From a virus, in IMG/VR virus record IMGVR_UViG_3300005529_000004, positions 1 through 64,000 of that record: a stretch of 64,000 nt of DNA. One strand, written 5' to 3'. Under the pieces are notes generated by a model. The model did not search any database, was not told the origin of the DNA, and saw only the letters and a list, made by a program, of their open reading frames with translations. Made by a program: the position numbers and the translations under genes. Shown in pieces: positions 8,422-54,614 of this stretch (position 1 is its first letter; each line of letters starts with the position of its first letter).

Positions 8422-10224
8422 ATGCCCGAGAAGACGACGCCGAAGCGCGCGACGCGCCGCCCTGCAGCATCCGCCGACAAGCCGCCGAACCTCGATGCGG
8501 CAGCGCAGGCCGTAGCGAAGGCCGTCCGCGAGGAGCCGGGGATCGGCCAGGGCCGCGTCATGAAGGTCCTGTACCTGGACGACCAGGGAAACCCGATCGG
8601 CGAGTGGGCCTCGCAGCAGCTCCCCGAAAACCCGTTCACGGGTCAGATGCAGGGACTGCAGGAGCCTCCCTTCCGCCTGGAACAGCTCGTCTACCTCGCC
8701 GAGAGCCACCCGGTTCACTCCGCCGCGCTGGAGCAGAAGACCGCCGACATCGTCGGTCGCGGCTGGGAGTGGGAGCCGGTGGATGAGCAGGAGGCGCCGG
8801 AGGAGCAGCGCGACGAGATGGCCGAGTGGTTCGAGAGCCTGGCGCCGGACGAGTTCGACATGCGCGAGGTGATCAACGCCGTCTGGCTCGACGTCGAGAC
8901 GACCGGCTGGGGCCTGTTCGAGGTGGCTCGCGATCCGTCCGGCGTGGCGCAGCGCATCTACCACGTCCCGGCGCATACCGTTCGCGCCCACCGCGCGGGC
9001 TTCAAGCTGGCGCAGATCAGGGACGCGCGCAAGGTCTGGTTCCGCCGCTGGGGAGCGGTCGAGGTGGACGGAGCGCCGGTCGAGGTGGACTCGCGGACCG
9101 GCAGCACGTCGAGCGTCAAGATTCCGGCCAACGACCTCTTCATCATCAAGCGCCCGGCGCGGCGCTCCACGTGGTACGGAATCCCCGGCTACGTGTCGTC
9201 GGTCGGCTGGATCGCGCTCGCACTCGCCGTCCGCGATGACAACCTGTTCTTCTTCGCCAACCGACGCGAGCCGCGCTGGGCGATCATCCTGAACAACATC
9301 GCCGACGACCCGAACCTGGAAGAGGACATTCGGCGCGCGTTCACGGTGGACCTGCGGCAGCCGCACCGGAACATCCTCATCCCGATCCAGGGCAACGGCA
9401 CGATCGAGTTCCAGCAGCTTTCGGGCAAGGCGCCACAGGAGGGCAGCTTCGAGAAGCTCGGCGACCGCGCCGACGCTGCGATCATGGTCTCGCACCGCGT
9501 TCCGGCGGAGCGCCTGGCGAACACGAAGACCGGACCGCTCGGCGGCAACGTCGCAGAGTGGGCGAACCGGGTCTACAAGGAGGGCGTGGTCGGGCCGGGC
9601 CAGGAGCTGCTGGCGTCGAGGCTCAACCGCTTCATCTCGGTCGAGTACGCGATTGCCACCGGCGCCAACGGCACGCGCCAGGCGAAGACGCAGAAGGCGA
9701 AGCTGAAGAAGGCACAGGCGTGGAAGCCCGCCTGGTTCATCCAGATGGACGATCTCGACATCGAGACCGACCGCGAGGAGCTGGACCTGGCCGTGATCGC
9801 TTTCCACGGAGACCTCATCACGCTGCGAGAGGCGCGCAACCGGCTGAAGCTCGGGCCGCTGATGGTCCCGAAGCAGGTGCCGATGGTAGACGAGCAGGGC
9901 AACCCGCTGCTCGACCCGGCCACGGGCGAGCCGATGGTCGGCCCGGATACTGGGACGATCGACCCGGCGACCGGCGACGTCATCGCGCCCGAGATGGTCG
10001 AGTCGCCGTACAACGACAAGCTCTTCACCGAGCTGCCGGGAGCCGCAGCGCAGGCCGGACAGCCCGGCGCCGTCCCGACTGGCTCCGGCGGGCTGCTGCA
10101 CAACGCTCGCGGCGATGGCCACGACCCGGCGATGGCGCTCCTCCTCGCGGAGACGCGCGAGTCGCTCGAAGCGTCGCGGAACATCGAGTCGCGAATCGCA
10201 GAGCTGGCTACGCGCGAGGAATGA
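8422..10224 (+). CDS. Portal protein (PBSX/HK97-type)
   Basis: HSAALEQKTADIVGRGW, DVETTGWGLFEVARD, HVPAHTVR, WYGIPGY, HRVPAE and TLREAR; lies between terL and MuF. Confidence 0.9.
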   Translation: MPEKTTPKRATRRPAASADKPPNLDAAAQAVAKAVREEPGIGQGRVMKVLYLDDQGNPIGEWASQQLPENPFTGQMQGLQEPPFRLEQLVYLAESHPVHSAALEQKTADIVGRGWEWEPVDEQEAPEEQRDEMAEWFESLAPDEFDMREVINAVWLDVETTGWGLFEVARDPSGVAQRIYHVPAHTVRAHRAGFKLAQIRDARKVWFRRWGAVEVDGAPVEVDSRTGSTSSVKIPANDLFIIKRPARRSTWYGIPGYVSSVGWIALALAVRDDNLFFFANRREPRWAIILNNIADDPNLEEDIRRAFTVDLRQPHRNILIPIQGNGTIEFQQLSGKAPQEGSFEKLGDRADAAIMVSHRVPAERLANTKTGPLGGNVAEWANRVYKEGVVGPGQELLASRLNRFISVEYAIATGANGTRQAKTQKAKLKKAQAWKPAWFIQMDDLDIETDREELDLAVIAFHGDLITLREARNRLKLGPLMVPKQVPMVDEQGNPLLDPATGEPMVGPDTGTIDPATGDVIAPEMVESPYNDKLFTELPGAAAQAGQPGAVPTGSGGLLHNARGDGHDPAMALLLAETRESLEASRNIESRIAELATREE

Positions 10225-13200
10225 ACCTCGCGGCTGCTCGCGAGCTGAACCGCGAGCACCACCGCATCCTTCGCCGTCGATTCGCCGTCGTCCAGAACGC
10301 AAGCCGCACGCACCGCACGCGGCAGGTGTCCGCCAAGCGGTACGCCACGCTCATCACACACGAGCGGGAGGTGTGGGGCGCTGGGCTGACGCGTATCTCG
10401 GACGACTTCCACTCGAAGCTCGACATCGACGCTGCGATCCAGTACTCCTACACGGAGCAGCGCCCCGGCGTCGTCAAGCGCCTGCTGCGTGCCATCCGCA
10501 AGGCCGACCCGAACCAGCCGCAGGACGGGACGCCGAACAGCCAGGAGGCGCGTGCTCGGCTGATGGCCCAGATCAACGAGGCATCGATGCTCGCCGGTGC
10601 GCTGCAGATGTACCTCGGGATGGCGATGCAGACTGACGCCGCCGCTGGGCAGATCAGCCTGGAGCATCTTGGCATCAACAAGACCTGGGCCTACGCGCAT
10701 CCGCAGAACATGGCGAACGCGCTCTACGCCGTGCGTGGGTCGAAGGTCATCCAGAACCTCTACGGCGACCACGTCGATCGCCTGACCCAGATCATCAACG
10801 AGGCCTGCGACCCACGCCACCCGTGGACGATTCAGCAGGTTCGTCAGAAGATCGCCGCCGAGTGGCCGCAGCTCCAGGCATACCAGGTGGACCGGATCGC
10901 ACGCACGGAGACGGCAGCGGTGTGGACGGCTACGTCGATGAACGCCTACGCCGCGAACGGCATCTCCGGCTGGACGTCCTCAATCGCCACCGGGCCGAGC
11001 ATCGGCATCGACAGCGAGGACCCCTGCGACGAGTGCGTGGAGGCTGCGGAGATGGTCCACACGATGGACGACGACATTCCGCCCTGGCATCCGAACTGCC
11101 GCTGCGAGGCGATCCCCGAGCTGACCGATCCCGAGACCGGGGACGAGTGGCTGCCGCCGGACGAGCCGTTCAATGGCGGAGGACCGGTCACGGTCGAGGG
11201 CACTCCTGCAGCCGACGAGTATGGGCCGCAGACGCAGGGGCCGATCCTGTCGCCGATGCCGGAGCCTGGCGCCCGCTACGCGTCCGGGCCGGGTAGCACG
11301 CTCTCGTCGTCGCCACGCAAGCTGCCGGATGGCTCGCGGGCTGCTGGATACGTGCCGACTTCGACACTCGTGGATGACCTCCGCGCTCAGCTCACGTCCA
11401 CGAACAACCGCATCTCGGGACTGAAGACCCGGCTGAAGAACCTGGACGAGTCGGACGCGCGCTATGCCGAGGTACAGGCGCGGCTGGAGAGCGAGTTTAA
11501 GAAGCGTCAAGAGCTGAAGGACCGGATCGCCGGGAAGACGCCGCCGGTCGAGCGTCCGCTGCCTCCCGAGCGCCCCGGCATTAAGACGGGACGGTCGCCG
11601 GAGGGCAGGCTCCGTAACTTCAAGGCGATGTCCGACGAGAAGCTCAAGGACGTCTGGGATCGCGTCGAGCACGAGGCGAACGATCCCGAGGCTGTCGCTG
11701 CGCTGCGTGCGGAGGGCAAGGCTCGCGGCCTGGATGATCCCTGGGGAGAAACGCCGCCTCCGCCTCCGCCTCCGCCTCCGCCTCCGCCTCCGCCTCCGCC
11801 TCCGCCGATCGAGCCGGTCACGATCGGCGACGACTGGAACGAGACGAAGTTCAACGCCGCGCTCGATCCGCTGGACGGCAACACCGTCCGCATCACGTAT
11901 CAGGGCGGTGGCCAGGTCGAGGGACAGCTCGTCAGGAGCGGGCCGTACTGGACGATCGACGGAGGAACACTCGGCAACGGTCTGGGCGTCGCGAAGATCG
12001 AGATGCGCGGGCCGGATGGCATCTGGCGCTCCGTCGCCGAGAAGCCGCCCGAGCCTGTGCTGCCACCCGAGCCGGACATGACGGCCGACGAGATTCGCGC
12101 CAAGATCACGACCCAGAACAACAAGATCAGCGGACTCAAGACGCGGATCAAGCGCCTGGAGTCGAACGGCGACCGGGACGGGAAGCTGCCCGAGGTGCGG
12201 CAGCGGCTGGCCGACGAGATCGCCGAGCGCGACCGGCTCAAGGGGCTGCTGGAGAAGGCTCCTCCGGCGCCGCGACCGGTCGTCCCGCCAGCGCCGGTGC
12301 CCGTGGCCGTGCCCGCGATGGGCGGCGACCTGTACCAGGCGACGATGGCTGTCCGCAGGCAGCTCATGGACCTGCATCAGGTCACGATCGATGACGCCGG
12401 ACTCGACAGCGTCATCGACCTCGGCACGAGGATTGACGACGCGATCCGCGACGCGATGCCAAAGGACGTCCAGTACGCCTTCGAGGATGCCCAGTCCGCC
12501 TACAACAAGGCCCTCGACGTCCGCGAGGAGACTATGGCGCCGATTGAGGCCGAGTACCGCGCCTCGCAGCAGCAGCTCAGCGCGCTCCATGACGCGACTA
12601 CCCTGCGGCTGTCAAACGGCAAGTACACCCGGTTCCGTGACGTGAGCATGTATCAGGAGCCAGAGCTGCGTCGGGCGATCCTCCACGACCCGGCTGTGGT
12701 GGAGCTGACCGACAAGACCACGGAGCTGAGCAGCGCGTTCTTCCGGCGCTCCCAGGATGAGTGGGCGAAGGTCAACGAGTACAAGGCGAAGGTCGATGCC
12801 ATCGAGGTGGACTACGTGAAGGCGCGACGGCAGGCCATCAAGGACGTCATGTCCCAGATCAGGGACATGGGCAGCGGCGCGGGCGTCCGCGTGAGGTTCG
12901 GGCACTTCCTCCGTGACTCGAAGTCTCGCGAGAGGATTGAGAAGCTGCTCACGAAGGCCCAGGAATACCTGCCCCGTGACTGGATCAGGGACATGCGTGA
13001 GATCGACGCCGGGTCAGCCCGGCGTGGCTACCACCGCAACCAGGGATCGTGGGCAGAGATCAAGGTCTCGAACAGCGACTCGCGGATCGCGGGTGACGGC
13101 AAGGGCCTCTCGACCGCGCTGCACGAGCTGGGGCACGAAGTGGAGGACATGAACTCGCTGGTCGTCCGCCTGGAACGTGCCTACTATCAGCGCCGGACTG

Positions 13201-13415
13201 AGGGCGAAGTGCTCAAGGGCGCTCCAGGCTATGGGCGTGACGAACGCTTCCGCGAGGACAAGTTCAGCGACATCTACATGGGAAAGTACTACGACGGCCG
13301 CAACTACGAGCTGCTGACGATGGGCCTGGAGTCGCTGTTCGAGACGGCGGGTCGCCGGAAGCTCATGGACCTGGATATGCGCCGGTGGCTGCTCGGCGTG
13401 CTGGCTGTCGGCTAG
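10221..13415 (+). CDS. MuF (SPP1 gp7-like) minor head protein with a long C-terminal extension and HExxH metallopeptidase-like domain
   Basis: RIARTE, CDEC and PPWHPNCRC give the MuF signature; poly-Pro linker; C-terminal TALHELGHEVE...YELLTMGLE. Confidence 0.85.
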   Translation: MNLAAARELNREHHRILRRRFAVVQNASRTHRTRQVSAKRYATLITHEREVWGAGLTRISDDFHSKLDIDAAIQYSYTEQRPGVVKRLLRAIRKADPNQPQDGTPNSQEARARLMAQINEASMLAGALQMYLGMAMQTDAAAGQISLEHLGINKTWAYAHPQNMANALYAVRGSKVIQNLYGDHVDRLTQIINEACDPRHPWTIQQVRQKIAAEWPQLQAYQVDRIARTETAAVWTATSMNAYAANGISGWTSSIATGPSIGIDSEDPCDECVEAAEMVHTMDDDIPPWHPNCRCEAIPELTDPETGDEWLPPDEPFNGGGPVTVEGTPAADEYGPQTQGPILSPMPEPGARYASGPGSTLSSSPRKLPDGSRAAGYVPTSTLVDDLRAQLTSTNNRISGLKTRLKNLDESDARYAEVQARLESEFKKRQELKDRIAGKTPPVERPLPPERPGIKTGRSPEGRLRNFKAMSDEKLKDVWDRVEHEANDPEAVAALRAEGKARGLDDPWGETPPPPPPPPPPPPPPPPPPIEPVTIGDDWNETKFNAALDPLDGNTVRITYQGGGQVEGQLVRSGPYWTIDGGTLGNGLGVAKIEMRGPDGIWRSVAEKPPEPVLPPEPDMTADEIRAKITTQNNKISGLKTRIKRLESNGDRDGKLPEVRQRLADEIAERDRLKGLLEKAPPAPRPVVPPAPVPVAVPAMGGDLYQATMAVRRQLMDLHQVTIDDAGLDSVIDLGTRIDDAIRDAMPKDVQYAFEDAQSAYNKALDVREETMAPIEAEYRASQQQLSALHDATTLRLSNGKYTRFRDVSMYQEPELRRAILHDPAVVELTDKTTELSSAFFRRSQDEWAKVNEYKAKVDAIEVDYVKARRQAIKDVMSQIRDMGSGAGVRVRFGHFLRDSKSRERIEKLLTKAQEYLPRDWIRDMREIDAGSARRGYHRNQGSWAEIKVSNSDSRIAGDGKGLSTALHELGHEVEDMNSLVVRLERAYYQRRTEGEVLKGAPGYGRDERFREDKFSDIYMGKYYDGRNYELLTMGLESLFETAGRRKLMDLDMRRWLLGVLAVG
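11753..11807 (+). repeat. (CCGCCT)n hexamer microsatellite encoding about 18 prolines
   Basis: About 9 perfect CCGCCT units, in frame within MuF. Confidence 0.9.
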
Positions 13416-35124: not shown

Positions 35125-36543
35125 TCACTCGCCGAGCGGTCCAGGGCTGAAGTCGTGGCCCTCCTCGGGCTGCGCCTCGGCCTGCTCGCCGTAGCCCGCC
35201 TGCTCCCGCTCCGCCCGGTAGCGCGGGTAGCGCTGGCGGATGACGTCGGCGTAGCGCGGGTCCAGCTCGACCACGAACGCGCGCCGATCGGTCAGGTCGG
35301 CCGCGATCAGGGTGGAGCCGCTGCCCGCGAACGGGTCGAAGACCACGTCGCCTGGCACCGAGCTGTTCTCGATCGCCTGCGTGATCAGCTCGACGGGCTT
35401 CATGGTCGGATGCTCGCGGCTCGCACTTGGCGCGTCCACCTCGATGACCGAGGTGCAGTTGTCCGGGCCGAACCACCGCGTCGGAACCTCGCCGGAACGG
35501 TTTGCCGCGCTGTTCTCCATCTGGCTGATGCGGCCGGTCCGACGTCCAGGCGTGTAACCGTAGTAGACCGCTTCATGCCGCAGGTGGTAGTCCGAGTGCC
35601 CGAGGATCATCCGCTGCTTGACCCAGACGAGCATCTGGAAGTAGCGCCACGGCGTCTCCAGGTTCTCGAACGAGGTAATGAAGACGCCGCCGTTGCGATC
35701 GGTCGGGCCTGCGACGTAGAACGGCGCCGACTCCTGCATGATCGTCGCGCAGGCAGTCCAGGCATCGCGCAGCAAGGCACGCAGGCCAGCCTGGTCGCGG
35801 GCGTCGTTCTGGATCGTCATCGCGTTGCCCTCGACCTTGCCGACGTAGTCCACGCCGTAGGGCGGGTCGGTCCACATCATCGTGGCCTTGCCGCCTTCAC
35901 CGAGCATCGCCTCGATGCCGGTCTTCAGCGCGTCGGCGTTCGTGGCATCGCCGCAGAACAGCAGGTGCCGCATCGGGTCCTCGGCCGGGCCGATCCAGTG
36001 GAACGAGTTGGGCGGAGTCTCGGGCGTCTCCGGCAGCTCGGGCGCGTCGTTCGTGCCGGGGATGCTGGACTCGATCCGCGACTCCATGTCCTGGAGCGAC
36101 CAGCCATGCTCGGCTGCCTGGCCCAGCCAGTACTCCGCCTTCTCCGCTCCGTAGCGTCGGACACGGCTGAAGTGCGAGAAGCTGACGCCGGGATGTCCTT
36201 CGAACCGCGTCATGTGCCGAGCGCGCTGCTCGTGCGGGAAGAACGCCGACACCGCCGCGTAGACCTTGACCGTCTTCTGGTCGAGGCCACCGATCGGGCT
36301 GGGCCGGTCGATCCACTCCCGGTACTCGCGCGGGAAGTGCGCCTTGTAGAAGTTCGCGATGTCGCCGATCGCGAAGCACGTCGCGTCGGTGATGGCGCCG
36401 AGACCTTCCGCGAGGCTCAGCAGCTCCTGCTCGGATGCACCGGGCGCGAGCTGCAGACCAACCGTCGTCATGCGGGCGTGCTCGGAGAGCGCGACTCCCT
36501 GCCCGCCGAAGACGGCAATCTCAGTGCTGCTCAAGTATCCCAC
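35125..36543 (-). CDS. DNA N6/N4 methyltransferase with an LmbU-like N-terminal domain
   Basis: TDPPY, HPTMKP and DPFAGSGST; N-terminal AIGD..SFSHF..WL.QA..HGWS. Confidence 0.88.
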   Translation of the reverse strand: MGYLSSTEIAVFGGQGVALSEHARMTTVGLQLAPGASEQELLSLAEGLGAITDATCFAIGDIANFYKAHFPREYREWIDRPSPIGGLDQKTVKVYAAVSAFFPHEQRARHMTRFEGHPGVSFSHFSRVRRYGAEKAEYWLGQAAEHGWSLQDMESRIESSIPGTNDAPELPETPETPPNSFHWIGPAEDPMRHLLFCGDATNADALKTGIEAMLGEGGKATMMWTDPPYGVDYVGKVEGNAMTIQNDARDQAGLRALLRDAWTACATIMQESAPFYVAGPTDRNGGVFITSFENLETPWRYFQMLVWVKQRMILGHSDYHLRHEAVYYGYTPGRRTGRISQMENSAANRSGEVPTRWFGPDNCTSVIEVDAPSASREHPTMKPVELITQAIENSSVPGDVVFDPFAGSGSTLIAADLTDRRAFVVELDPRYADVIRQRYPRYRAEREQAGYGEQAEAQPEEGHDFSPGPLGE

Positions 36544-36629
36544 CTCCTTCTATGACTCCCGCATTGTACGCGAACCGCGCCGTCTCCGCGAGCGGGGCTG
36601 CGCGTTCTCTGGCCGGTAGACTCGAACCC

Positions 36630-38096
36630 ATGAAGCCAGACGATCTCTCCGGCGTCTACCTCGTGGAGGACGGCGACGCTGCCGCTTTCTCGTGGGGACC
36701 GGACGGCGCGCGGCACTCGTTCCGTGGCGTCGAGGACGGCGAGCGCGCACTCCGCAAGGCTGTCGCGCACGGGCTGGCGGTCGAGGAGATCGCGAAGATG
36801 TCCGAGTTCGAGCGCGCGGTAGCCCGTGAGCTGTCGGTCGGCGTCGGCGTCCGCAAGGACACCTCGGGCGCCGTGATCATCGGCTACTTCCCCTTCGACG
36901 GCAACGGCGACGAGGACGATGCCTTCGCCAGCCAGCTCTCGCAGCTCGGCTCCGGCTCCGTCGCCGCGACCGACATCCACCTGACCCTGCTCTACCTCGG
37001 CGAGCCGGACCCCGCCTGGGACCTGGACCTGATCGCCGCGTGCGTCAAGATCGCTTGCTGCACCGCGATGCCGATCAAGGGCTGCGTCTCCGGCCTCGGC
37101 CGCTTCGTCGGTCCCGAGGATCAGGACGTCATCGTCGCGCTCGTGGACGTCCCCGAGCTGGGACGGCTGCGTCACCAGATCAAGGACCAGCTCCTCTGCT
37201 ACGGCGCGCTGCCCTACACAGCGCAGTGCTTTCAGGAGGAGCACGGTTACCTGCCTCACTTCACGATCGCGTACGTCTCCAAGAGTGCAGCATCGCCGTC
37301 GCCGCTGACCGAGGTCGTGCCCTTCACGCTCGATTCCCTGGCGCTGGCTGCCGGGCCGAAGCGTGTGCAGTTCGACTTCTCCGGCGGCTACGACGTCGCG
37401 ACGAGCGATCCTGCACCGTACTACGCCGCGCGCCTGCAGAAGGAAGGGCGCGTGCTGCGCCAGGAGCACCTGGAGTGGATGGAGGACTCGATCGCGCGCA
37501 TGCAGGAGATCGTGGACAGGGAGCGCCGTCGCAAGAAGCCCGGCAACCCCGAGTCGAAGGAAGACGACTCCACCGGCGACGCCGCAGCGACGGGTGGCAG
37601 CGCCGCCCAGATGTCGCGCGACGCCGATGGCACCGAGGACCTGGCCTACACCGTCACGAAGGCGCTGGAGGAGGAGCGGTTCACGCTCGGCCCGCTCTAT
37701 GCGCCGGAGCGCAAGGACGCGCATGGCGAGTGGACCGACGCCGCGACGCTGCAGAAGGCTGTCTGGTCCTTCGTGGAAGAAAGTGCTGCAAATGGGCGAC
37801 TTCTGAACCTGCAGCACGGCGATCACGGCACGCAGACGGTCGGCGAGTGGGTCGAGGTCATGGCCTGGCCCTACGAGCACACGATCAAGGTCGCCACGGC
37901 TGGCGGCGAGGAGCGCGAGCTGGAGATGCCTGCGGGCACCGTCTACCTCGGCGCCAAGTGGTCGCCGGAGGCGTGGAAGCTCGTCAAGGCCGGGAAGCTC
38001 AACGGCTGGTCGCTCGGCGGCTCGGCTGTCCGTGTTGCCACCGAGGGCGACCTGCCGATGATGGGCGATGCCAAGATTCCGGCGGCGGTACGCTAA
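36630..38096 (+). CDS. 2H phosphoesterase (Acb1/LigT-like) fused to an XkdF-type prohead protease
   Basis: Two H-x-T motifs (HLTLLYLG, PHFTIAY); C-terminal DAHGEW..NLQH..AWKLVKAGKLNGWSLGG; leaderless start after GGTAGACT. Confidence 0.82.
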   Translation: MKPDDLSGVYLVEDGDAAAFSWGPDGARHSFRGVEDGERALRKAVAHGLAVEEIAKMSEFERAVARELSVGVGVRKDTSGAVIIGYFPFDGNGDEDDAFASQLSQLGSGSVAATDIHLTLLYLGEPDPAWDLDLIAACVKIACCTAMPIKGCVSGLGRFVGPEDQDVIVALVDVPELGRLRHQIKDQLLCYGALPYTAQCFQEEHGYLPHFTIAYVSKSAASPSPLTEVVPFTLDSLALAAGPKRVQFDFSGGYDVATSDPAPYYAARLQKEGRVLRQEHLEWMEDSIARMQEIVDRERRRKKPGNPESKEDDSTGDAAATGGSAAQMSRDADGTEDLAYTVTKALEEERFTLGPLYAPERKDAHGEWTDAATLQKAVWSFVEESAANGRLLNLQHGDHGTQTVGEWVEVMAWPYEHTIKVATAGGEERELEMPAGTVYLGAKWSPEAWKLVKAGKLNGWSLGGSAVRVATEGDLPMMGDAKIPAAVR

Positions 38097-46289: not shown

Positions 46290-46308
46290 TTCAGGTAGGG
46301 TGAGCGCA

Positions 46309-47238: not shown

Positions 47239-47316
47239 GCGGGCAACGGCCCGCCGGAGAATCTCCGTCCAGAGAACCTTGCTGGCGGCTGGTAGACTGG
47301 TTCTGAAAGGAGGGCT

Positions 47317-47814: not shown

Positions 47815-47852
47815 CTCGGCAAGGCCTCCCGGTTCGAATCCGGGTCGCGCTA
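47806..47852 (+). ncRNA. Truncated tRNA-like element (acceptor stem plus T-arm only)
   Basis: GGCGCG-TAGCTC..CCCGG-TTCGAAT-CCGGG-T-CGCGCT-A; anticodon arm absent. Confidence 0.55.
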
Positions 47853-47936
47853 CGGCGCGGGAACCAGGTGATTCAGGCGCCCTGGCAGCAAGAGCCTCCC
47901 TCGGGAGGCTCTGCTGGTGCTGGGTAGAGTTGGAGT

Positions 47937-48461
47937 GTGGGATACGCGCCGGTCAGCCTCATCACGATCGGGCCGGAGCCGCCGGGGTCGGGCAGCGGAG
48001 AGCTGACCGTCACCGAGGGCGAAGGGCCGAAGTTCTCCGCCGCTCCGTGGAAGGGCCTCGTCTGGCCGACGAACGACATCCCGCAGCTCGGCGTCAATGC
48101 CTGCGAGATCGAGGTCAACAACGTCAACGGAGACGTGCTGTCCTTCGACCGCGACGACCCGACGATCGACATCCACGCCGGGCTGCAGGTCGCCGAGATT
48201 CAGGCCATCCCGCTGCACGGGATCGGTGGCTCGATCACGCTGTCTGCCGTGTTCGCTTCCGCGAGCGGACCGTACACCGCGCTCCTGCGCTCGCCGTCCG
48301 GCTCGCTGTCCTCCCCGGCGGCTGTCGATGGCGGAGCCGGGAGCGCCTGGTACGGCTTCGCGCCGAACCGCAGCGGCACCTGGGCGTTCCAGTTCGAGGA
48401 CTCGCTCGGCGACCGCTCTCCCGAGCAGGAGTTCTTCGTGCCCTTCGTAGGCACGGAGTAG
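47937..48461 (+). CDS. Hypothetical beta-rich protein
   Basis: GTG 6 nt after GGTAGAGT. Confidence 0.65.
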   Translation: MGYAPVSLITIGPEPPGSGSGELTVTEGEGPKFSAAPWKGLVWPTNDIPQLGVNACEIEVNNVNGDVLSFDRDDPTIDIHAGLQVAEIQAIPLHGIGGSITLSAVFASASGPYTALLRSPSGSLSSPAAVDGGAGSAWYGFAPNRSGTWAFQFEDSLGDRSPEQEFFVPFVGTE

Positions 48462-48470
48462 GCTGACAGC

Positions 48471-48851
48471 ATGGGCCGCGTCCAGATTCCTGTCGCCCGC
48501 GTCACGCGCTCCGGCATCGGAGGCTCGGCGTTCGTCCAGGGCGACGACCAGAACAAGATGTACTTCGCCAACAACGCCGGGAACACCTGGCTTCTGGCGG
48601 TCAACGACGACGCGGCCGACGCCTACGTCGGCGCCGAGTTCGCTACGCCGCAGCTCGACACGGTTCCGACGCCGGACCGCCTGGCCACGGTGCCCGCAGG
48701 CGGCTCGGCCTGGATCGGGACCTTCCCGCGCATGTGGTACAACCAGGACGACAACAGCGTCTGGATCAACCCCGGCACCGGCCCGGCCCATCCGACCACG
48801 CCGACCTGGGTCAACCTCTGGTTCAAGGCCTTCGACTTCCAGGACATCTAG
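48471..48851 (+). CDS. Hypothetical, probable virion protein
   Basis: Leaderless after TAGGCT; ..VPAGGSAWIGTFP..YNQ. Confidence 0.65.
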   Translation: MGRVQIPVARVTRSGIGGSAFVQGDDQNKMYFANNAGNTWLLAVNDDAADAYVGAEFATPQLDTVPTPDRLATVPAGGSAWIGTFPRMWYNQDDNSVWINPGTGPAHPTTPTWVNLWFKAFDFQDI

Positions 48852-49267
48852 TGGCAGACGAGATCGTCAACGTTCGAGGATGCGCGCGCTGCGGTGGGAC
48901 GCACGATGGGCTGGCGTTCAAGAGCCTCGATGCGCCGATCGTGGAGTCGGACGGCACGATCCTCACCCACTCCGCGCCCTGCCCGAAGACGGGTCGCGCG
49001 ATCCTGCTCGGGACGGCGCCGGTCGGCAAGGCGAACAGCATCCCGGCGGCGGTCAACTATCGCCCGGCCAGCGCGCCTGGCGAGTCGTGTGCGACCTGCG
49101 CCTACTTCGACGTCGAGACCGCGCGCTGTGCCATGTTCGACGTCACCGTCTCGCCGAAGTACGTCTGCGACAAGTGGAGCGACGTCGTGAAGCGCATCGT
49201 GCGCGGAGTCGCACAGGCAACCGAGTTCAAGCTGGCGAAGCTCAGAAAGGCGGCGCGCTGTGGCTAG
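48851..49267 (+). CDS. Zinc ribbon plus HiPIP-like 4-Cys domain protein
   Basis: VNY-x8-CATCAYF-x6-C-x6-VSPKYVCDKW. Confidence 0.6.
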   Translation: MADEIVNVRGCARCGGTHDGLAFKSLDAPIVESDGTILTHSAPCPKTGRAILLGTAPVGKANSIPAAVNYRPASAPGESCATCAYFDVETARCAMFDVTVSPKYVCDKWSDVVKRIVRGVAQATEFKLAKLRKAARCG

Positions 49268-50303
49268 CCCTGTTCCGCATCCCCTGCCCTCGTGGTGGGA
49301 CGAGGCGTGCGACTACCGCTACGGCATCCTGCCGAGCAAGCCGCGCCCGAAGGACATCCCGCACCTCACTCGCCCGCAGTACGACTGGTGCTTCGAGCAG
49401 TGGGCCGAGTTCGACGCGTGGAACACCTGGAAGGACAAGGGCGGACCGCGTCCGGCGGTCTGGCACCTCGTCCCGCTGTGGGCGTGGCGCCTGCGGCACG
49501 AGCTGCTGCACGCGCATCCGAAGCCGCCGAAGCCTCCGCCTGCTCACCCGGAGCCGGTCAGCATCTGGAAGAACCCGCCCTGGAAGGGGCGTGGCATCCA
49601 CATCGCCTGGGGCTTCGAGTCGGGCGACTGGACACCGGCGCAGATTGCCGCGCGCCTGCACAAGGCTGGCTTCTCGTGGGCCGCGCTGGAGGGCAGTCCG
49701 GCGCTGCAGAACGAGCAGTTCATGGCCGACTTCGTGGCGGCGCAGCACGAGCTGGGCATGAAGGCGATCCTCTGGGAGCGCAGCGACGTGCAGAAGGACT
49801 ACCCGGAGCCGCGCCTCGACCACGTGACCCGGCTGCTCACGACCTACGGCTTCGACGCGTATGGCGCCGACATCGAGGAGTTCCCGATCGACACGCCGGA
49901 CTTCCCTACGGCCTTCGCCAACGCTCACCCGACCTTCCCTCGCGTCACGCTGTGTGCGGGCATGGCCGACGCGGTCTACTACCAGACCTGGATCGCAGCG
50001 GGCTGGGACTGCATGACCGAGGCGTACTCGGGCATGGCCGGTGTCGCGCCGGGCGTCGGGATCGCAGGCGCGATGGACAGCGACGCCTTCTGGCGCGGCT
50101 TCCCTCGCAACGCCGTCCCGAAGCCTGGTCTCTGGGGAGGCAACGGAACGGGGCCGCACACGTGGCCGATCATCGAAGTCAACGCCGAGAAGAACCCTGG
50201 TCTCGCTCCGCAGCTCAGCGCCGTCGCTCCCTGGGGCGACAACTACTCCATCTGGGACGCCGAGCAGATGCAGGACGCGGACTGGGCCGTCTACGGTGCT
50301 TGA
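49260..50303 (+). CDS. Putative glycoside-hydrolase-like (TIM barrel) protein
   Basis: Trp-rich N-domain, Pro linker, then GIHIAW..FDAYGADIEE..MTEAY..YSIW. Confidence 0.5.
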   Translation: MASPVPHPLPSWWDEACDYRYGILPSKPRPKDIPHLTRPQYDWCFEQWAEFDAWNTWKDKGGPRPAVWHLVPLWAWRLRHELLHAHPKPPKPPPAHPEPVSIWKNPPWKGRGIHIAWGFESGDWTPAQIAARLHKAGFSWAALEGSPALQNEQFMADFVAAQHELGMKAILWERSDVQKDYPEPRLDHVTRLLTTYGFDAYGADIEEFPIDTPDFPTAFANAHPTFPRVTLCAGMADAVYYQTWIAAGWDCMTEAYSGMAGVAPGVGIAGAMDSDAFWRGFPRNAVPKPGLWGGNGTGPHTWPIIEVNAEKNPGLAPQLSAVAPWGDNYSIWDAEQMQDADWAVYGA

Positions 50304-51345
50304 TGCGCGGCTGTTCTCCGTAGGGAAGAACGTCGTCCCGCCACCCGAGTGGCGTCCGACCGCCGCGATCGACTTCGACGGCGTGCTGCACCACTACACC
50401 GGCGACGGCGCCACGACGCCGGTCGCGGTCGATGATCCGCCCGTCGAGGGCGCGATCGAGTGGCTGACGGCGATGCGCGAGATCTTCGACGTCGTGGTTT
50501 TCAGCTCGCGCGGCCGGGACACCGGGGACGTGCTCACGGTGCAGCGCTGGTTGGAGGCGCACGGGCACGGCGACATTCCGGTTACCGCGATCAAGCCCAT
50601 CGCGCACGTCTACGTGGACGATCGGGGCTGGCGCTTCGAGGGGCCTGGTAAGTTCCCCGACCCGCAGGTCCTGCTCAGCGCCCGTCCGTGGTGGTCGGAG
50701 GCCGACACGGGCGCGGACGCGCTCGCACGGGGCCTCTACCGCGAAGCCGTGCGGCACGAACCGGAGACCACCGCGTTTATGGAGCAGGCGGCGCGCGCCA
50801 CGGGCGGCTATCTCGGCGGGCTGGAGTTCCGCTGGAAGGACCCGACGACGCTCGCGGCCAAGATCAAGGCGGTCGCCGAGCGCGACGACTCGACCCTGGA
50901 GGACGCGGCCGGGCATGTCTACGACGCGCTCCGCTACACGCTGATCTACCCGACGATCGACTACACGGACGGCGTTCGAGCGGCGCTCGCGGACCTGCCG
51001 CTCACGGTCCAGCGACTCCGCAACTACTGGACAGGCACGCCGGGCAGCCAGCGATTCCTGCCGGGCACCTACGTCGGAATCAACGCTGTTCTCAGAACCG
51101 ACGACGGATTCCCGGTTGAGCTGCAGTTCCACACGCCGGAGGGCCGCGCCGCCAACGGCGCCAACCAGCTCCTCTACCAGATGGTCGATGACGCGTCGCT
51201 GACGCCGGAGGACGCTCAGCGAATCGGCGACGAGATGCGGGCGAACGTGGACGCCGTGCCGAGGCCCGAGGGAGTGCAGAATATAGGCGCGACCGCTAAG
51301 CTCGCCGCAGCCCTGCTCAGCGTGCCGGGGCCGACCACGCTCTGA
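50296..51345 (+). CDS. HAD phosphatase fused to a RelA/SpoT-type (SAS) nucleotidyltransferase
   Basis: IDFDGVLH..FSSR..KP.A.VYVDDR, then FRWKD..LAAKI..DALRYT..NYW..YVGIN..VELQFHT. Confidence 0.8.
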   Translation: MLDARLFSVGKNVVPPPEWRPTAAIDFDGVLHHYTGDGATTPVAVDDPPVEGAIEWLTAMREIFDVVVFSSRGRDTGDVLTVQRWLEAHGHGDIPVTAIKPIAHVYVDDRGWRFEGPGKFPDPQVLLSARPWWSEADTGADALARGLYREAVRHEPETTAFMEQAARATGGYLGGLEFRWKDPTTLAAKIKAVAERDDSTLEDAAGHVYDALRYTLIYPTIDYTDGVRAALADLPLTVQRLRNYWTGTPGSQRFLPGTYVGINAVLRTDDGFPVELQFHTPEGRAANGANQLLYQMVDDASLTPEDAQRIGDEMRANVDAVPRPEGVQNIGATAKLAAALLSVPGPTTL

Positions 51346-51401
51346 GGCGCGGACCCGCAAGGTGTGGTTGGATTCGGCCGCGCGCCCGTGGTACGCTGAG
51401 C

Positions 51402-51517
51402 AGTCCTATACCCCGAGCTGGAAGGAGGACCCTCCGAGGCAGCCGCTAGCCGGGAAGACCCGGACCCTAGACAGGTCGGACAAGAAACCGAGGCCCGCGC
51501 AAGCGGGCCTCCCTTCT
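51402..51517 (+). ncRNA. Candidate sRNA
   Basis: TGG-TACGCT -10 at about 51391; hairpins GTCCT..AGGAC and CCGGG..CCCGG; terminator GAGGCCCGC-gcaa-GCGGGCCTC. Confidence 0.4.
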
Positions 51518-51550
51518 TCCGGCACGGATGGCGCCGGTAGACTTCCTCCC

Positions 51551-51817
51551 GTGAGCATCACGATCAACAAGGTCAACCGGGCGGACGGCACGTACGACGT
51601 GTCGGCAACCGGCGCGGACGACACGGCCCTGGCAGCGCTCAACGGCGAGGCCACCGGACCCGGCGATGCCGGGCGCAACGACGGCGAGTTCTGCGAGCTG
51701 ATCGGCACCAGCCGGTACCTCGTGACCGCCGGAGTGCTTCGGGCGCAGGGCGTCTCGGGCTTCGCCGCCCCGCAGTACACCGGCGACGCTTCGGCCTACT
51801 CCTTCAAGGGAGTCTAG
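51551..51817 (+). CDS. Small protein, paralog array member 1
   Basis: Leaderless GTG after GGTAGACT; ITINKVNRADGT. Confidence 0.7.
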   Translation: MSITINKVNRADGTYDVSATGADDTALAALNGEATGPGDAGRNDGEFCELIGTSRYLVTAGVLRAQGVSGFAAPQYTGDASAYSFKGV

Positions 51818-51821
51818 GCTC

Positions 51822-52025
51822 ATGCCGCAGGTGGACTACCCGGTCCTCGCGGGGTCCGCAGCCGACACCGCGCTCCAGGCGAAGACGCCGACGACCGGCG
51901 GCTTCAAGGTGCAGGTCACGAAGTCCGCGCATGCGGACGGCCTCGACACCTTCAACGAGCAGCTCATCATGAGCTACGAGCGCGCCCGCAAGCACCTCCA
52001 GGCTGGCACCGGCGAGCTGCTCTAG
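51822..52025 (+). CDS. Small protein
   Basis: GSAADTALQA resembles member 1. Confidence 0.65.
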   Translation: MPQVDYPVLAGSAADTALQAKTPTTGGFKVQVTKSAHADGLDTFNEQLIMSYERARKHLQAGTGELL

Positions 52026-52034
52026 GGACCTGGC

Positions 52035-52283
52035 ATGACGCCGTCCCTGGTCAAGTTCAACCGGGCCGACAACACGGCTCTCGTCACCGGCGCCTACGGG
52101 GACTTCTCGGGCTACAAGCACTCGACCGACTACCCGGCGGCGCAGTACGTCTCAGCGTTCTGGGCGGACGAGGTGGACGGCGAGGCGGTCATCGAGGACG
52201 TGGACGGCTCGGTGCTGCCGGGCACGAATCCTGCCTGGGTCATCAGCCGGGCGCTCGCGGTCAACCTCGGCCTGACCAACTAG
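52035..52283 (+). CDS. Small protein, paralog array member
   Basis: LVKFNRADNT..ISRALA. Confidence 0.7.
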   Translation: MTPSLVKFNRADNTALVTGAYGDFSGYKHSTDYPAAQYVSAFWADEVDGEAVIEDVDGSVLPGTNPAWVISRALAVNLGLTN

Positions 52284-52292
52284 GCGGCGGGC

Positions 52293-52544
52293 GTGCCGAT
52301 CACGCTGGTGCGGATCGACCGCACCTACAACGCGTACTGGGTCACGGCGTCGGGCGCAGAGGAGGCGCAGCTCCAGGCGATGGACGGCTACGTCGATTCG
52401 ACGGCTGCGTCTGGCTCGGAGGGCATCGCGGACGGATCGAAGCAGTGGGTGGACCAGGGCAGCAACCGCTCGCTGGGATCGCAGTACCGGATCAGCCGCG
52501 CAGCGGCCGAGGCGATGGGCGTCATCGCCCCAGGCACGCCGTAG
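52293..52544 (+). CDS. Small protein, paralog array member
   Basis: ITLVRIDRT..ISRAAA. Confidence 0.7.
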   Translation: MPITLVRIDRTYNAYWVTASGAEEAQLQAMDGYVDSTAASGSEGIADGSKQWVDQGSNRSLGSQYRISRAAAEAMGVIAPGTP

Positions 52545-52568
52545 CAGCGAGCCGGTAGACTCTCAGCC

Positions 52569-53330
52569 GTGCAGCTCTGGCGGACGATCAAGCTCGGGAC
52601 GACCGGCGCCGACGCGAAGGCGGCGAAGCGTGCGCTCGCGCGTGCAGGCTACGGTCCCGGCAAGCTTGCGGGCCTGACGCCGGTGTTCGGGCCATTCTCC
52701 GTGCGCTGGCTGAACCAGTGGAAGAAGACGGTCAGCCTGCCGCAGAACGGCCAGATTCAGCAGCCCGCGCTCGATGCGCTGTGGCCCTGGTTCGACGCCT
52801 ACGCGCGCAAGCTCTACGCCAGCTACAAGCCTCCGGCGGTGTACGTCAACCCGTTCGCACACTCGAAGGGCCTCGTACCCGAGCGCACCGACGACGGCGT
52901 GGACTACGGCGGCAACGCCGGGTCGCCGATCGGAGCGCTGGGGCGTTCGAAGATCATCGAGGCGACGACCGATTCGCACTGGCCGGGACCCTACGGCAAC
53001 CCGTCCGGCTTCAACGGACACGGCGGGCTGATCCACGGCGTCTTCCTCGACGGCCCGAACGCTGGTGAGGAGTGGTACCTGGCGGAGTACATCCACGTGG
53101 ACTGCGGTGTGGGTGACGTCGTCCTGCCGGGCCAGCAGATTGCTCGGTTCTACCACGACGCGAACACGGGCGTCGGTATCGAGTACGGCTTCGGGATCGG
53201 CGGCGACCACCAGTCCGCCACCGAAGCAGGTAAGGCGTGGGCGCGGCTGCTGCTCTCCACCGGCGCTCCGGTCCGCGACGATCCGGGTCCTGGGTCGTCT
53301 CTGTCCCCGTTCGGAAAGGTGGTTCAGTAA
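52569..53330 (+). CDS. Endolysin-like: peptidoglycan-binding domain plus M23-like domain
   Basis: LGTTGADAKAAKRAL..FG....V..W; then GVDYGG..GSPI.A..VGDVV.PGQQIA. The zinc-binding His residues are not obvious. Confidence 0.65.
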   Translation: MQLWRTIKLGTTGADAKAAKRALARAGYGPGKLAGLTPVFGPFSVRWLNQWKKTVSLPQNGQIQQPALDALWPWFDAYARKLYASYKPPAVYVNPFAHSKGLVPERTDDGVDYGGNAGSPIGALGRSKIIEATTDSHWPGPYGNPSGFNGHGGLIHGVFLDGPNAGEEWYLAEYIHVDCGVGDVVLPGQQIARFYHDANTGVGIEYGFGIGGDHQSATEAGKAWARLLLSTGAPVRDDPGPGSSLSPFGKVVQ

Positions 53331-53419
53331 TGCTCGCCGACATCACCATCTCGTTCTGGCAGCTCATCCTGGGCATCCTCGCGGTGCTGGCGATCATCTG
53401 GTTTGTGAGGCACCTCTAG
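53330..53419 (+). CDS. 29-aa single-TM peptide (holin/antiholin-like)
   Basis: Hydrophobic peptide between two lysin genes. Confidence 0.55.
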   Translation: MLADITISFWQLILGILAVLAIIWFVRHL

Positions 53420-54434: not shown

Positions 54435-54559
54435 CGCTTCGGTCGCTTCCGCTTCTTGCGCGGGTCTGCGCTGCTGAGCGGCTGGACGTTGCCCGACTGG
54501 TCGATCGACACGTTGGGCAGGTCCTGCACGCTGAAGACGGATGCGGGCGCGTCGGCCAT
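54431..54559 (-). CDS. Small protein with a basic tail
   Basis: Leaderless ATG 7 nt after GGTAGACT. Confidence 0.55.
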   Translation of the reverse strand: MADAPASVFSVQDLPNVSIDQSGNVQPLSSADPRKKRKRPKR

Positions 54560-54614
54560 CACTCGGAGTCTACCGGCGCTGGCGTGTTCCGCCAGTTCAG
54601 GTATGATTCGGTGC

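Follow-up and report, generated by a model that had tools for sequence, protein, structure and literature searches.

Phage-borne and secreted alarmone synthetases (Apk1, Apk2, and the exported alarmone synthetases, EAS) belong to a young field. The nearest example to the protein considered here is SaEAS, an exported alarmone synthetase of Streptomyces albidoflavus with a solved structure (PDB 8VX3; PMC12691689). In the available portion of that paper, the N-terminal partners listed for EAS proteins are Sec, WXG/LXG, XopAD, MuF, DUF4157, and Rhs/PAAR, a list without HAD. Apk2 proteins are toxins of temperate phages in which a (p)ppApp synthetase is fused to MuF; their immunity is of the IapK/Tis1-like and Aph1 kinds (PMC10083569, PMC12226406, PMC5576092). 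All characterised Apk1/Apk2/EAS members are kept in check either by an immunity protein that binds them or by a hydrolase of the HD type.

RelA/SpoT and 2H domains are also named among the constituents of phage-type polyvalent proteins (Iyer, Burroughs, Anand, Aravind 2017, PMC5512222), which routinely combine unrelated effectors. The main text of that paper, as far as it is available, does not name a HAD domain: as a whole word, 'HAD' occurs three times, as the verb.

The uncultured phage described here, from a window of 64,000 nucleotides (the whole stretch of DNA that was analysed), encodes a 349-aa protein in which a HAD phosphatase domain is welded, in fixed order, to a monophyletic branch of alarmone synthetases. 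The pair lets one ask whether phages alter the fate of toxic alarmones, by tuning, recycling, or chemically diverting them, and it bears as well on what MuF-type head cargo does after injection.

Gene and product

The initial annotation had proposed, at the coordinates given in Table 1, a HAD phosphatase fused to a small alarmone synthetase of the RelA/SpoT type. The open reading frame is real, its boundaries are correct, and both domain calls are borne out by fold, homology, and motifs. A record of the identical protein (P0002) is present in the protein collection. The gene is translationally coupled: its start codon, GTG at 50296, lies 8 nt deep in the end of the upstream gene (49260-50303), and 17 nt separate its own stop from the start of the next ORF. 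The in-frame start codon that follows the GTG falls within HAD motif I. A longer frame, of 434 aa from 50041, runs through part of the upstream gene in a different reading frame.

Table 1. Positions in the window of the fused gene, its domains, and other phage features
Feature	Position	Strand	Basis or remark
Portal	8200-10224		Pfam Phage_portal 2.1e-6, below cut-off
Long ORF after portal gene, weak MuF match	10221..13415	+	Start 10221 assumed
Tyrosine integrase	15143-15643		E 1.6e-37
2H phosphoesterase fused to XkdF-type head protease	36435..38096	+	Pfam, tblastn
Rnl1-like RNA ligase	44144-45238		In region 3-6 kb upstream of HAD-synthetase gene
Pnkp	46240-47238		In region 3-6 kb upstream of HAD-synthetase gene
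Cys-rich 138-aa gene	48851..49267	+	Start 48851 is a reading of the frame
HAD-synthetase CDS	50296..51345	+	GTG start, TGA stop, 349 aa
Capless (C0-like) HAD phosphatase domain, residues 19-133	50350..50694	+	Fold, motifs, phrog_1238
RelA/SpoT-type SYNTH domain, Apk/EAS clade, residues 134-338	50695..51309	+	Homology, fold, motifs

All the motifs first named from the translation are there: DFDGVLH (residues 26-32), FSSRG (69-73), IKP (99-101), and VDDRG (107-111) in the HAD domain, and RWK (179-181), DALRY (210-214), YVGIN (259-263), and ELQFHT (275-280) in the synthetase. They are not chance matches, since they are conserved across 12 proteins that carry the two-domain unit. In the alignment of these 12, D26, D28, G29, K100, D108, and D109 of the HAD domain are invariant, as are K181, K189, D210, R213, Y214, G261, E275, Q277, H279, and T280 of the synthetase; conservation is 90% or more at S70, R179, Y259, and N263. 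Judged by these residues, both active sites look intact.

An AlphaFold2 model of the protein, built from 141 sequences, has a mean pLDDT of 87.7. The linker, residues 133-135, falls below 50 and the pTM is 0.67, and the model therefore gives no evidence of shared or facing active sites.

The HAD domain

The catalytic motifs of the HAD domain are assigned as D26-F-D28-G-V (I), S70 (II), K100 (III), and D108-D109 (IV). A P131-W-W133 conserved in the 12 unit proteins closes the domain, just before the synthetase begins. The assignment to the Rossmannoid fold of the HAD superfamily comes from structure: residues 18-130 find many matches among HAD structures, at Z 7-10.5, and the matches to residues 19-129 include 2OBB (Z 10.5), human 5'(3')-deoxyribonucleotidase 6G2N (Z 8.9), and the T4 Pnkp phosphatase 5UJ0 (Z 8.4). 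PHROG phrog_1238 matches the domain at 7.6e-9. The best sequence-profile match to any solved HAD has an E-value of 0.062, no curated HAD family model in Pfam matches the 349-aa protein above its cut-off, and relatives of the domain reach Pfam HAD_SAK_2 at 16.7-23.8 bits, below the cut-off of 27.5. A comparison with the HAD domain of the phage's own Pnkp found no significant similarity in sequence (E 2.4).

The synthetase domain

The four synthetase motifs, assigned after the accessible text of PMC12226406 and the literature on RelA/SpoT homologues (RSH), are R179-x-K181...K189 (syn1), D210-x-L-R-Y-T (syn2), Y259-x-G-x-N263 (syn3), and E275-x-Q-F-H-T (syn4). They align to those of SaEAS and Tas1, including the Mg-binding Asp of syn2 and the catalytic Glu of syn4.

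No Pfam family matches the 349-aa protein at E<=1. RelA_SpoT (PF04607), the model by which the domain was to be checked, finds nothing at that threshold in the whole phage, while it matched 12 of 14 control genomes. This miss is not a disproof, as the model does not reach the clade to which the domain belongs. Because PF04607 is negative, the family call rests on phmmer to SaEAS, profile search, and fold. The SaEAS chain 8VX3 is the sole single-sequence match by phmmer in the PDB (E 2.7e-10), and a profile search of the PDB gives 8VX3 at 1.7e-40 and Tas1 (6OX6) at 2.6e-7. The 8VX3 structure matches residues 134-338 (VIA) with Z 21.0 and an rmsd of 2.6 over 190 residues, at 24% identity; RelP (Z 13.9), Tas1 (13.3), RelQ (13.1), CapRel (11.5), and FaRel (8.4) share the SYNTH fold, which is of the pol-beta-like nucleotidyltransferase kind. 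Foldseek places the domain in the RSH fold as well, with 61 matches at E<=1e-3, led by 8VX3 (E 9.6e-13, TM 0.78-0.80 by target) and including after it RelP, RelQ, Tas1, CapRel, Rel, SpoT, and RelA. The NCBIfam model of the XopAD C-terminus matches at 1.3e-21, and by tblastn the C-termini of MuF/head-morphogenesis proteins match in 59 phage records, 35 of them Streptococcus, with Pasteurella and Haemophilus also among them.

What the enzyme would use as acceptor is another matter. The available text of PMC12226406 gives RYT in syn2, GxN in syn3, and an aromatic-His pair in syn4 as the signature of adenosine 3'-pyrophosphokinases, and AVR, SxH, and IR instead as that of (p)ppGpp synthetases. The first signature, that of Apk2tox, is present in the 349-aa protein and, by alignment, common to SaEAS. 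It does not reveal acceptor specificity, because motif swaps in Apk2 left specificity unswitched (PMC12226406) and because SaEAS, with the same motifs, makes both types of alarmone and prefers guanylates, according to the accessible part of PMC12691689.

Recurrence of the pair

The initial annotation held that a HAD partner is unusual, and so it is. Among 240 loci encoding relatives of the synthetase (80 from viruses, 80 from metagenomes, and 80 from species genomes), the fusion is found on one distinct contig. An exhaustive search of 1.84 billion representatives lists 13 further proteins with HAD and then synthetase, all metagenomic, and one more was found separately. In all 13 the domains are adjacent and in the same order. 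A full-text literature search, with 'haloacid' and alarmone terms, found no paper on the pairing. The sequences indicate that the pairing is rare and not unique to this phage, a conserved unit that resides mostly in large MuF-type polyvalent proteins.

The 14 unit rows and P0144 form one clade of 15 among 104 synthetase domains (SH-aLRT 98, quick tree). Most of the further proteins are of 864-2038 aa, with 2H phosphoesterase and MuF head-protein domains; two, P0044 and P0144 (299-320 aa), have nothing beyond HAD and synthetase. The unit lies at the N-terminus of its carriers or at residues ~400-730. It moves as a block, since its position varies and the pair is never split. HAD and synthetase are best seen as one evolutionary, and probably functional, unit.

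Of seven long unit proteins scanned, six have a 2H domain and six match Phage_Mu_F at E<=1e-3, two of the latter above the Pfam cut-off. One adds Zeta_toxin and DUF3626, another an ADP-ribosyltransferase. At one locus (L002) the carrier gene comes after a portal-sized ORF.

The phage and its other genes

The phage is of high GC, and 127 of the 156 phage records that match its portal are Streptomyces phages. It is temperate, to judge by its tyrosine integrase. The HAD-synthetase gene belongs to a co-directional cluster, where it has RNA-repair genes on one side and small unknown genes on the other.

The 138-aa gene, a separate one, has, at residues ~52-112, a Cys-rich (CxxC...C...C) domain of ~50 aa that occurs also in the unit-bearing polyvalent proteins: blastp finds it in 7 of the 11 long ones and in no other stored protein, tblastn matches as well, and in 4 of those 7 it directly follows the synthetase domain. 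The 2H-protease gene (Pfam 2_5_RNA_ligase2, 4.1e-8; Peptidase_S78_2, 4.1e-10) is matched at 36915-37418 by the 2H segments of polyvalent proteins (tblastn), and the relatives hold the 2H domain and the HAD-synthetase unit in one polypeptide. The last ~330 aa of the long ORF after the portal gene match the C-termini of three unit-bearing proteins (P0038, P0042, P0043) at 1e-37 to 1e-42. That ORF also has the phage's only match to MuF (PF04233, at 10833-11114), with an E-value of 9.9e-4, below the cut-off.

A proposed nucleotide-directed effector

I propose, tentatively and at slightly less than even odds, that the 349-aa protein is a bifunctional nucleotide-directed phage effector, made of coupled enzymes and detached from a virion-cargo protein. 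The synthetase would be an active pyrophosphokinase of the Apk1/Apk2/SaEAS clade that takes the beta,gamma-pyrophosphate from ATP and attaches it at the 3'-OH of a purine nucleotide; its products would be (p)ppApp and/or (p)ppGpp, with AMP left over. The HAD domain would be an active phosphomonoesterase of the nucleotide/polynucleotide type, working on the same nucleotide pool. It might take a phosphate off the 3'-pyrophosphorylated nucleotide made by the synthetase, which would trim or recycle that product, or it might dephosphorylate the AMP by-product and so make the drain on ATP irreversible. The unit usually rides in MuF-type polyvalent head-cargo proteins and has become a free-standing gene in this temperate phage. 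The 349-aa protein itself lacks a MuF domain, and no signal for export or packaging is recognisable in it, so virion delivery is unsupported in its case.

A bolder version, which I regard as quite improbable, is that the pair is a two-step synthase whose product is beyond the reach of either domain by itself. The synthetase would add a 3'-pyrophosphate and the HAD domain would strip only the terminal phosphate, leaving a nucleoside 5'-(di/tri)phosphate 3'-monophosphate such as pppAp or ppGp. That product might be an alarmone of a non-canonical kind, might imitate a host signal, or might terminate chains through its blocked 3' end, and, delivered or made early, it could paralyse host transcription or defence signalling. 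HAD-SYNTH would then parallel the HD-SYNTH core of RelA/SpoT enzymes without being its homologue, and with a different output chemistry. If the HAD domain only drains AMP or erases the product, the pair is a modest addition to what is known; if it creates a new 3'-phosphorylated nucleotide, it would represent a new messenger or toxin chemistry. The free-standing form is a convenient minimal construct, in which two point mutations, one of the motif I Asp and one of the syn2 Asp, would separate the two activities.

Other readings of the pair

It can be argued against coupling that the adjacency of the two domains could stem from a single fusion event. HAD and synthetase would then be independent effectors that travel together and strike different host targets. 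I think this unlikely, though it has the character of the carriers behind it: they have the make-up typical of polyvalent proteins, 2H, MuF, zeta-kinase, and ART in series, and for such proteins the accessible text of PMC5512222 argues distinct targets and possible cleavage apart. The linker, too, is flexible by its low pLDDT, and the same type of HAD domain occurs elsewhere with AEP-TOTE primase domains or unknown partners and stands alone in 88 of 180 stored proteins. Yet adjacency and order are kept in every member of the clade, including P0044, P0144, and the 349-aa protein, the unit shifts its position in the carriers unsplit, and the conserved PWW ends the HAD domain right before the synthetase.

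Another view, rather less likely, makes the protein a self-limiting writer and eraser, a toxin fused to its antitoxin. The HAD domain would hydrolyse the synthetase's alarmone and so play the part of an HD domain or of Aph1/SAH, and the protein would be harmless until regulated, perhaps as an abortive-infection switch of the prophage. The order of hydrolase and then synthetase mirrors the HD-SYNTH of long RSH enzymes (RelSeq 1VJ7 and Rel fragments are among the fold matches), and the phage is temperate. The initial annotation was right that the hydrolases are normally of the HD type, Aph1 being the known enzymatic immunity of the toxin clade (available text of PMC10083569 and PMC12226406), and HD_4 was not found anywhere in this phage. 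No Tis1/IapK-like or HD-type Aph1 gene was recognised beside the HAD-synthetase gene; the downstream ORFs, among them one of 151 aa, have no Pfam, PHROG, or PDB match, and at L002 those listed immediately after the carrier gene run in the opposite direction. An unrecognised immunity protein proves little, however, for such proteins diverge fast, too far for a sequence search to exclude one. A constitutive fusion, moreover, would be a futile ATP-consuming cycle unless regulated, and no sensor domain is present. Most of the relatives are in head-cargo proteins, which suggests that a cell just infected is attacked rather than that a lysogen is defended, and the MuF-type carriers favour an offensive role, as virion cargo or in host takeover, over a self-contained toxin-antitoxin.

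Some evidence draws attention from free nucleotides to RNA ends. The neighbouring Rnl1-like ligase and Pnkp genes lie 3-6 kb upstream, relatives of the HAD domain weakly match HAD_SAK_2, a domain of RNA-repair proteins, and an RNA-end substrate may apply. In its full form this reading has the synthetase pyrophosphorylate the 3'-CCA of tRNA, as do CapRel, FaRel2, and PhRel2, and the HAD domain serve as a 3'-phosphatase that removes or trims the mark, acting on host tRNAs or repairing tRNAs struck by a host toxSAS defence. I consider it improbable. The HAD domain does resemble the 3'-phosphatase of T4 Pnkp (Z 8.4) and the Pnkp1 RNA-repair complex (Z 8.0), but its matches to nucleotidases (Z 8.5-8.9) are equal to these. 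The carriers also have 2H phosphoesterase domains, processors of RNA ends, and the window has 10 tRNA genes. CapRel is among the fold matches of the synthetase, but the tRNA enzymes are structurally farther from it (CapRel 11.5 and FaRel 8.4 vs SaEAS 21.0), and the closest characterised relatives (SaEAS, Apk2, Tas1) use free nucleotides. As a weak further point against it, the synthetase domains are acidic in all 14 unit proteins (pI 4.3-5.5, net charge -3 to -20), while pI exceeds 8 in 34 of 90 other synthetase relatives. The suggestion that host tRNA is inactivated at its 3'-CCA while the phage supplies its own found no positive support, given these relatives and (weakly) the acidic domains, and phage tRNAs share the CCA end and so would not escape.

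Comparison with known systems

The proposed nucleotide effector has its closest counterpart in SaEAS, which is to the synthetase domain both the nearest solved structure and the nearest relative in sequence, with the same RYT, GxN, and QFHT. SaEAS is a secreted protein of a single domain, with a Sec signal peptide; the 349-aa protein carries HAD instead. No hydrophobic leader is seen by inspection in residues 1-18, ahead of the HAD domain at 19, and Pfam and NCBIfam find no EAS export domain or secretion-recognition domain in the protein. Tas1/Apk1, the T6SS (p)ppApp synthetase of Pseudomonas aeruginosa (6OX6), is of the same clade (profile E 2.6e-7, Z 13.3, 23% identity). It is a PAAR-linked T6SS effector with the immunity protein Tis1 and without a phosphatase partner.

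The Apk2-type toxins, in MuF/head-morphogenesis proteins of Streptococcus, Pasteurella, Haemophilus, and Ralstonia phages, have a homologous synthetase (24-33% identity over residues ~127-331). Like them, the 349-aa protein is phage-borne, in a temperate phage, and its unit has relatives in MuF-bearing proteins. Unlike them, it has no MuF domain by Pfam and its synthetase is preceded by HAD, and its long relatives carry the unit at the N-terminus or internally rather than as a toxin tip at the C-terminus. The tRNA-pyrophosphorylating toxSAS enzymes (CapRel, FaRel2, PhRel2) give no PDB match at the level of sequence, and the 349-aa protein has no CapRel-like C-terminal domain.

The HAD domain shares fold and catalytic motifs with the T4 Pnkp phosphatase, 5'(3')-deoxyribonucleotidases, and BT_0820 (2OBB), as a minimal capless domain of ~115 residues, but its similarity in sequence to solved HADs is weak. 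The 11 long relatives (864-2038 aa) fit the phage-type polyvalent proteins, MuF with 2H, RelA/SpoT, zeta-kinase, and ART; the 349-aa protein is the two-domain unit alone.

Long RelA/SpoT homologues (Rel, SpoT) have the same order of phosphohydrolase and then SYNTH in one chain, with a shared SYNTH fold, and they have the regulatory TGS/ACT domains that the 349-aa protein lacks. Their hydrolase is a metal-dependent HD pyrophosphohydrolase, and in its place the 349-aa protein has a HAD phosphatase with an Asp nucleophile. HAD chemistry takes off single phosphoryl groups, not a whole 3'-pyrophosphate.

A HAD phosphatase and an alarmone synthetase in one protein

The initial annotation saw in this gene a HAD domain joined to an alarmone synthetase, and the translation bears it out: the four HAD motifs and all the synthetase motifs it named are present. 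Pfam does not recognize the protein. A scan of its 349 residues gave no family at E<=1, and PF04607, put forward as a check on the synthetase, found no match anywhere in the phage. I have set that absence aside as a disproof, since homology to a PDB chain and the fold clearly place the domain in RelA/SpoT.

Other libraries are more informative. PHROG assigns residues 22-120 to a small HAD-like family (phrog_1238, 7.6e-9) and matches residues 131-326 to 'head morphogenesis' families in their C-terminal part. In NCBIfam the XopAD effector model aligns, through its last 190 positions, with residues 140-330 (1.3e-21). A phmmer search of all PDB chains gave a single match, 8VX3 'SaSAS' (2.7e-10, residues 147-332), identified in PMC12691689 as SaEAS, the exported alarmone synthetase of Streptomyces albidoflavus. 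With a profile from 45 relatives, 8VX3 is found at 1.7e-40, and the T6SS (p)ppApp synthetase Tas1 is added at 2.6e-7.

The fold comes from an AlphaFold2 model based on an alignment of 141 sequences (mean pLDDT 87.7, pTM 0.67), which replaced a discarded single-sequence model (pLDDT 41.6). Residues 134-338 superimpose on 8VX3 with Z 21.0 (rmsd 2.6, 190 aligned), followed by RelP (13.9), Tas1 (13.3), RelQ (13.1), CapRel (11.5), and FaRel (8.4). Residues 19-129 match best the 121-residue HAD protein BT_0820 (Z 10.5), then human 5'(3')-deoxyribonucleotidase (8.9), T4 Pnkp phosphatase (8.4), and MDP-1 (8.0). Because of these matches, the N-terminal domain as modeled is a minimal, capless HAD, and the C-terminal domain, by PDB homology as well, belongs to the Apk/EAS branch of RelA/SpoT SYNTH domains. 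Judged by its kin in fold, the HAD would be a phosphatase acting on nucleotides or polynucleotides. The linker between the domains is poorly modeled (residues 133-135, pLDDT below 50), so the model is silent on substrate channelling.

By motif and conservation, both catalytic domains appear intact. Across 12 aligned proteins with the same unit (HAD, then SYNTH, adjacent in one chain), the invariant residues are D26, D28, G29, K100, D108, and D109 in the HAD and K181, K189, D210, L212, R213, Y214, G257, T258, G261, E275, Q277, H279, T280, and P281 in the synthetase. S70, R179, Y259, N263, and F278 are conserved at >=90%. In syn2, syn3, and syn4 the synthetase bears RYT, GxN, and aromatic-His, respectively, the signatures given for adenosine 3'-pyrophosphokinases by Paulet et al. 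(PMC12226406). The same article reports that swapping the signatures leaves specificity unswitched, so the acceptor nucleotide is not predictable from them.

A rare pairing of single origin

A word-index search within the near-length range returned the protein itself as the only full-length match, and for a time the fusion looked unique. An exhaustive HMMER search, run over 1.84 billion representatives and yielding 4,487 proteins at E<=1e-3, overturned that idea. Among the 150 matches listed, 13 other proteins carry the HAD and the synthetase, adjacent and in the same order: P0033-P0038, P0040-P0044, P0039 (which starts within its HAD), and P0144 (recognized by pairwise alignment). An additional search for longer proteins recovered just three long forms and contributed one more unit protein, P0182. 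The architecture census that the initial annotation called for thus shows a pairing that is rare, yet not unique.

By length, two unit proteins stand alone (299 and 320 aa) and 11 run from 864 to 2038 aa; in these the unit lies either N-terminally or around residues 400-730. All ten that were looked up are metagenomic, with uninformative names. The 180 stored relatives divide into 88 with the HAD only, 78 with the synthetase only (P0144 among them), and 14 with both, counting the protein itself. A quick maximum-likelihood tree built from 104 synthetase domains puts the 14 unit rows and P0144 together in a single 15-row clade (SH-aLRT 98). The unit is conserved at 37-44% identity.

Contigs were scanned at the best 80 loci of 196 viral, at least 539 metagenome, and 312 species-genome relatives. 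The fusion appears at one of the 80 viral loci (L002) and, among the 80 metagenome loci, only on L084, which is the same contig; none of the 80 species-genome loci has it. A HAD gene separate from the synthetase gene was found once in the viral set, at a locus (L013) where the two lie 4 kb apart, and in 0/80 further metagenome loci and 0/80 genome loci. Among ESM Atlas clusters of >=50 members, the size visible there, none has the two-domain layout. From the exhaustive search, the clade, the identity, the contig scans, and the Atlas, I conclude that the pairing is rare, conserved, and of single origin.

Carriers and dispersed building blocks

Pfam was run on seven of the 11 long relatives. Six have a 2H phosphoesterase (2_5_RNA_ligase2/LigT), and six have Phage_Mu_F at E<=1e-3, two of them exceeding the curated cut-off; Zeta_toxin with DUF3626 occurs in one, as does an ADP-ribosyltransferase. 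Their domain content is that of the phage-type polyvalent proteins described by Iyer et al. (PMC5512222), among whose domains RelA/SpoT and 2H are listed. As a whole word, 'HAD' is found in the text of that article only as a verb; its figures might show HAD-linked members. The sole contig that gives context to a long relative (L002) has the carrier gene after terminase- and portal-sized ORFs.

The building blocks joined in these carriers are dispersed over separate genes in the present phage (see table). A 2H domain is fused to the head protease. The last ~330 residues of the long post-portal ORF resemble the C-termini of P0038, P0042, and P0043 (31-35% identity, E 1e-37 to 1e-42), a shared region that matches no Pfam family. 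The 138-aa protein contains, at residues ~52-112, a Cys-rich domain of ~50 aa that is found in seven of the 11 long relatives, directly C-terminal to the synthetase in four of those seven, and in no other stored protein.

An N6/N4 DNA methylase gene (3.4e-23; 35125-36543, minus strand) adjoins the protease fusion. Giant metagenomic proteins (572-3054 aa; P0045-P0048, P0053, P0071, P0109, P0166, P0176) have two or three synthetase domains in tandem. In a set of ~360-aa proteins including P0008, P0012, P0016, and P0018, AEP-TOTE primase-like domains (PF22548) carry a small HAD of the present type fused C-terminally. Ten HAD-only relatives with extra length showed no informative partner domain in Pfam.

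Genes of the phage that bear on the HAD-synthetase protein
Feature	Coordinates	Strand	Remarks
Long post-portal ORF	10221-13415	+	weak MuF match
Tyrosine integrase	15143-15643	-	PF00589, E 1.6e-37
2H + XkdF-type head protease fusion	36435-38096	+	
T4 Rnl1-like RNA ligase	44144-45238	+	Pfam RNA_lig_T4_1, 3.7e-10
Polynucleotide kinase-phosphatase (Pnkp)	46240-47238	+	AAA_33 + HAD_PNKP 3.1e-47; phrog_505 1e-88
138-aa protein, two Cys-rich motifs	48851-49267	+	separate gene
HAD-synthetase CDS	50296-51345	+	GTG start, 349 residues
Four small ORFs (151, 67, 82, 83 aa)	51362-52544	+	directly downstream of HAD-synthetase CDS

The gene, its neighbors, and the phage

At its GTG start the gene shares 8 nt with the end of the upstream one (49260-50303), whose stop is TGA. 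The sole later in-frame start would lose the first catalytic Asp, and a longer frame from 50041 overlies the upstream gene out of frame. An identical protein is held in a large protein collection.

The virus record, whose first 64 kb make up the window, comprises 89,259 bp with direct terminal repeats and is estimated to be complete; GC is ~68% along the whole window. Compared with isolated phages, the portal protein reaches no more than ~29% identity, and none of 50,697 phage records was matched by megablast of 49000-53000, so the phage has no annotated close relative. The tyrosine integrase implies that it is probably temperate. A promoter and terminator scan of 45000-55000 gave nothing exceeding shuffles, and Rfam at E<=0.1 over 40000-56000 gave only two tRNAs (40330-40473). 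ARAGORN places ten tRNA genes (Gln, Pro, Asn, His, Leu, Cys, Tyr, Phe, Arg, Met) in 7631-8299, 40330-40473, and 62588-62662.

By sequence, the Rnl1-like ligase and Pnkp, encoded upstream of the HAD-synthetase gene at a distance of 3-6 kb, are a predicted tRNA-repair pair. The HAD is not a copy of the one in Pnkp, since the two match only at E 2.4. No HD_4 hydrolase was found in the phage. The four small downstream ORFs match no known family; they are weakly similar to each other (best E ~1e-5, in a database of four sequences), and the 151-aa and 83-aa products, 33% identical over 48 residues, may be paralogues. Five neighboring small ORFs have no homologues in any fetched locus of a synthetase relative. 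A predicted complex of the 151-aa product with the synthetase domain scored 0.01 against a mark of 0.32, which speaks neither for nor against binding.

A proposed coupled effector

I propose that the protein is a coupled two-enzyme effector, in which the synthetase would make (p)ppApp, (p)ppGpp, or both, with AMP as by-product, and the substrate of the HAD would be that product or the AMP. The proposal may well be right, though I stop short of calling it probable. The synthetase's kin, as described in PMC12691689, PMC10083569, and PMC12226406, are free-nucleotide pyrophosphokinases toxic in the cytoplasm. The HAD and the synthetase are inherited as one block, mostly within head-cargo proteins; that they are two independent effectors merely traveling together is unlikely, though worth keeping in mind.

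A self-limiting writer/eraser or a fused toxin-antitoxin, as the initial annotation had it, is more doubtful still. The two domains and the motifs that it saw are confirmed, and its interpretation holds up in part; its toxin-antitoxin and tRNA readings both rate below the coupled effector. Least probable is a pair directed at RNA ends, with the tRNA 3'-CCA as target: the RNA-repair neighborhood (Rnl1-like ligase, Pnkp) and the Pnkp-like fold of the HAD favor it, but CapRel (Z 11.5) and FaRel (Z 8.4) are more distant than SaEAS (Z 21.0), and the synthetase domains are acidic in 14/14 unit proteins (pI 4.3-5.5), whereas 34/90 other relatives have a pI above 8.

Comparison with known alarmone synthetases

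A full-text literature search for haloacid together with alarmone synthetases found nothing; it covered main texts and the spelled-out word, the abbreviation 'HAD' alone not being searchable. A HAD is not among the N-terminal partner domains that PMC12691689 lists for its alarmone synthetases, though its supplementary sequence lists might hold HAD-linked members. What we have is a putative phage alarmone-synthetase effector with a conserved phosphatase partner, a pairing previously undescribed in the literature found.

The protein probably works like an Apk/EAS-type alarmone synthetase, yet it is without the defining carrier feature of each named family: the MuF of Apk2, the PAAR of Apk1, and the export signal of EAS. 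Its HAD-then-SYNTH order resembles the HD-then-SYNTH core of the long RelA/SpoT enzymes, with a hydrolase that is non-homologous to theirs. Alarmone-synthetase effectors of phages are already known; what appears to be new is the phosphatase partner conserved alongside the synthetase.
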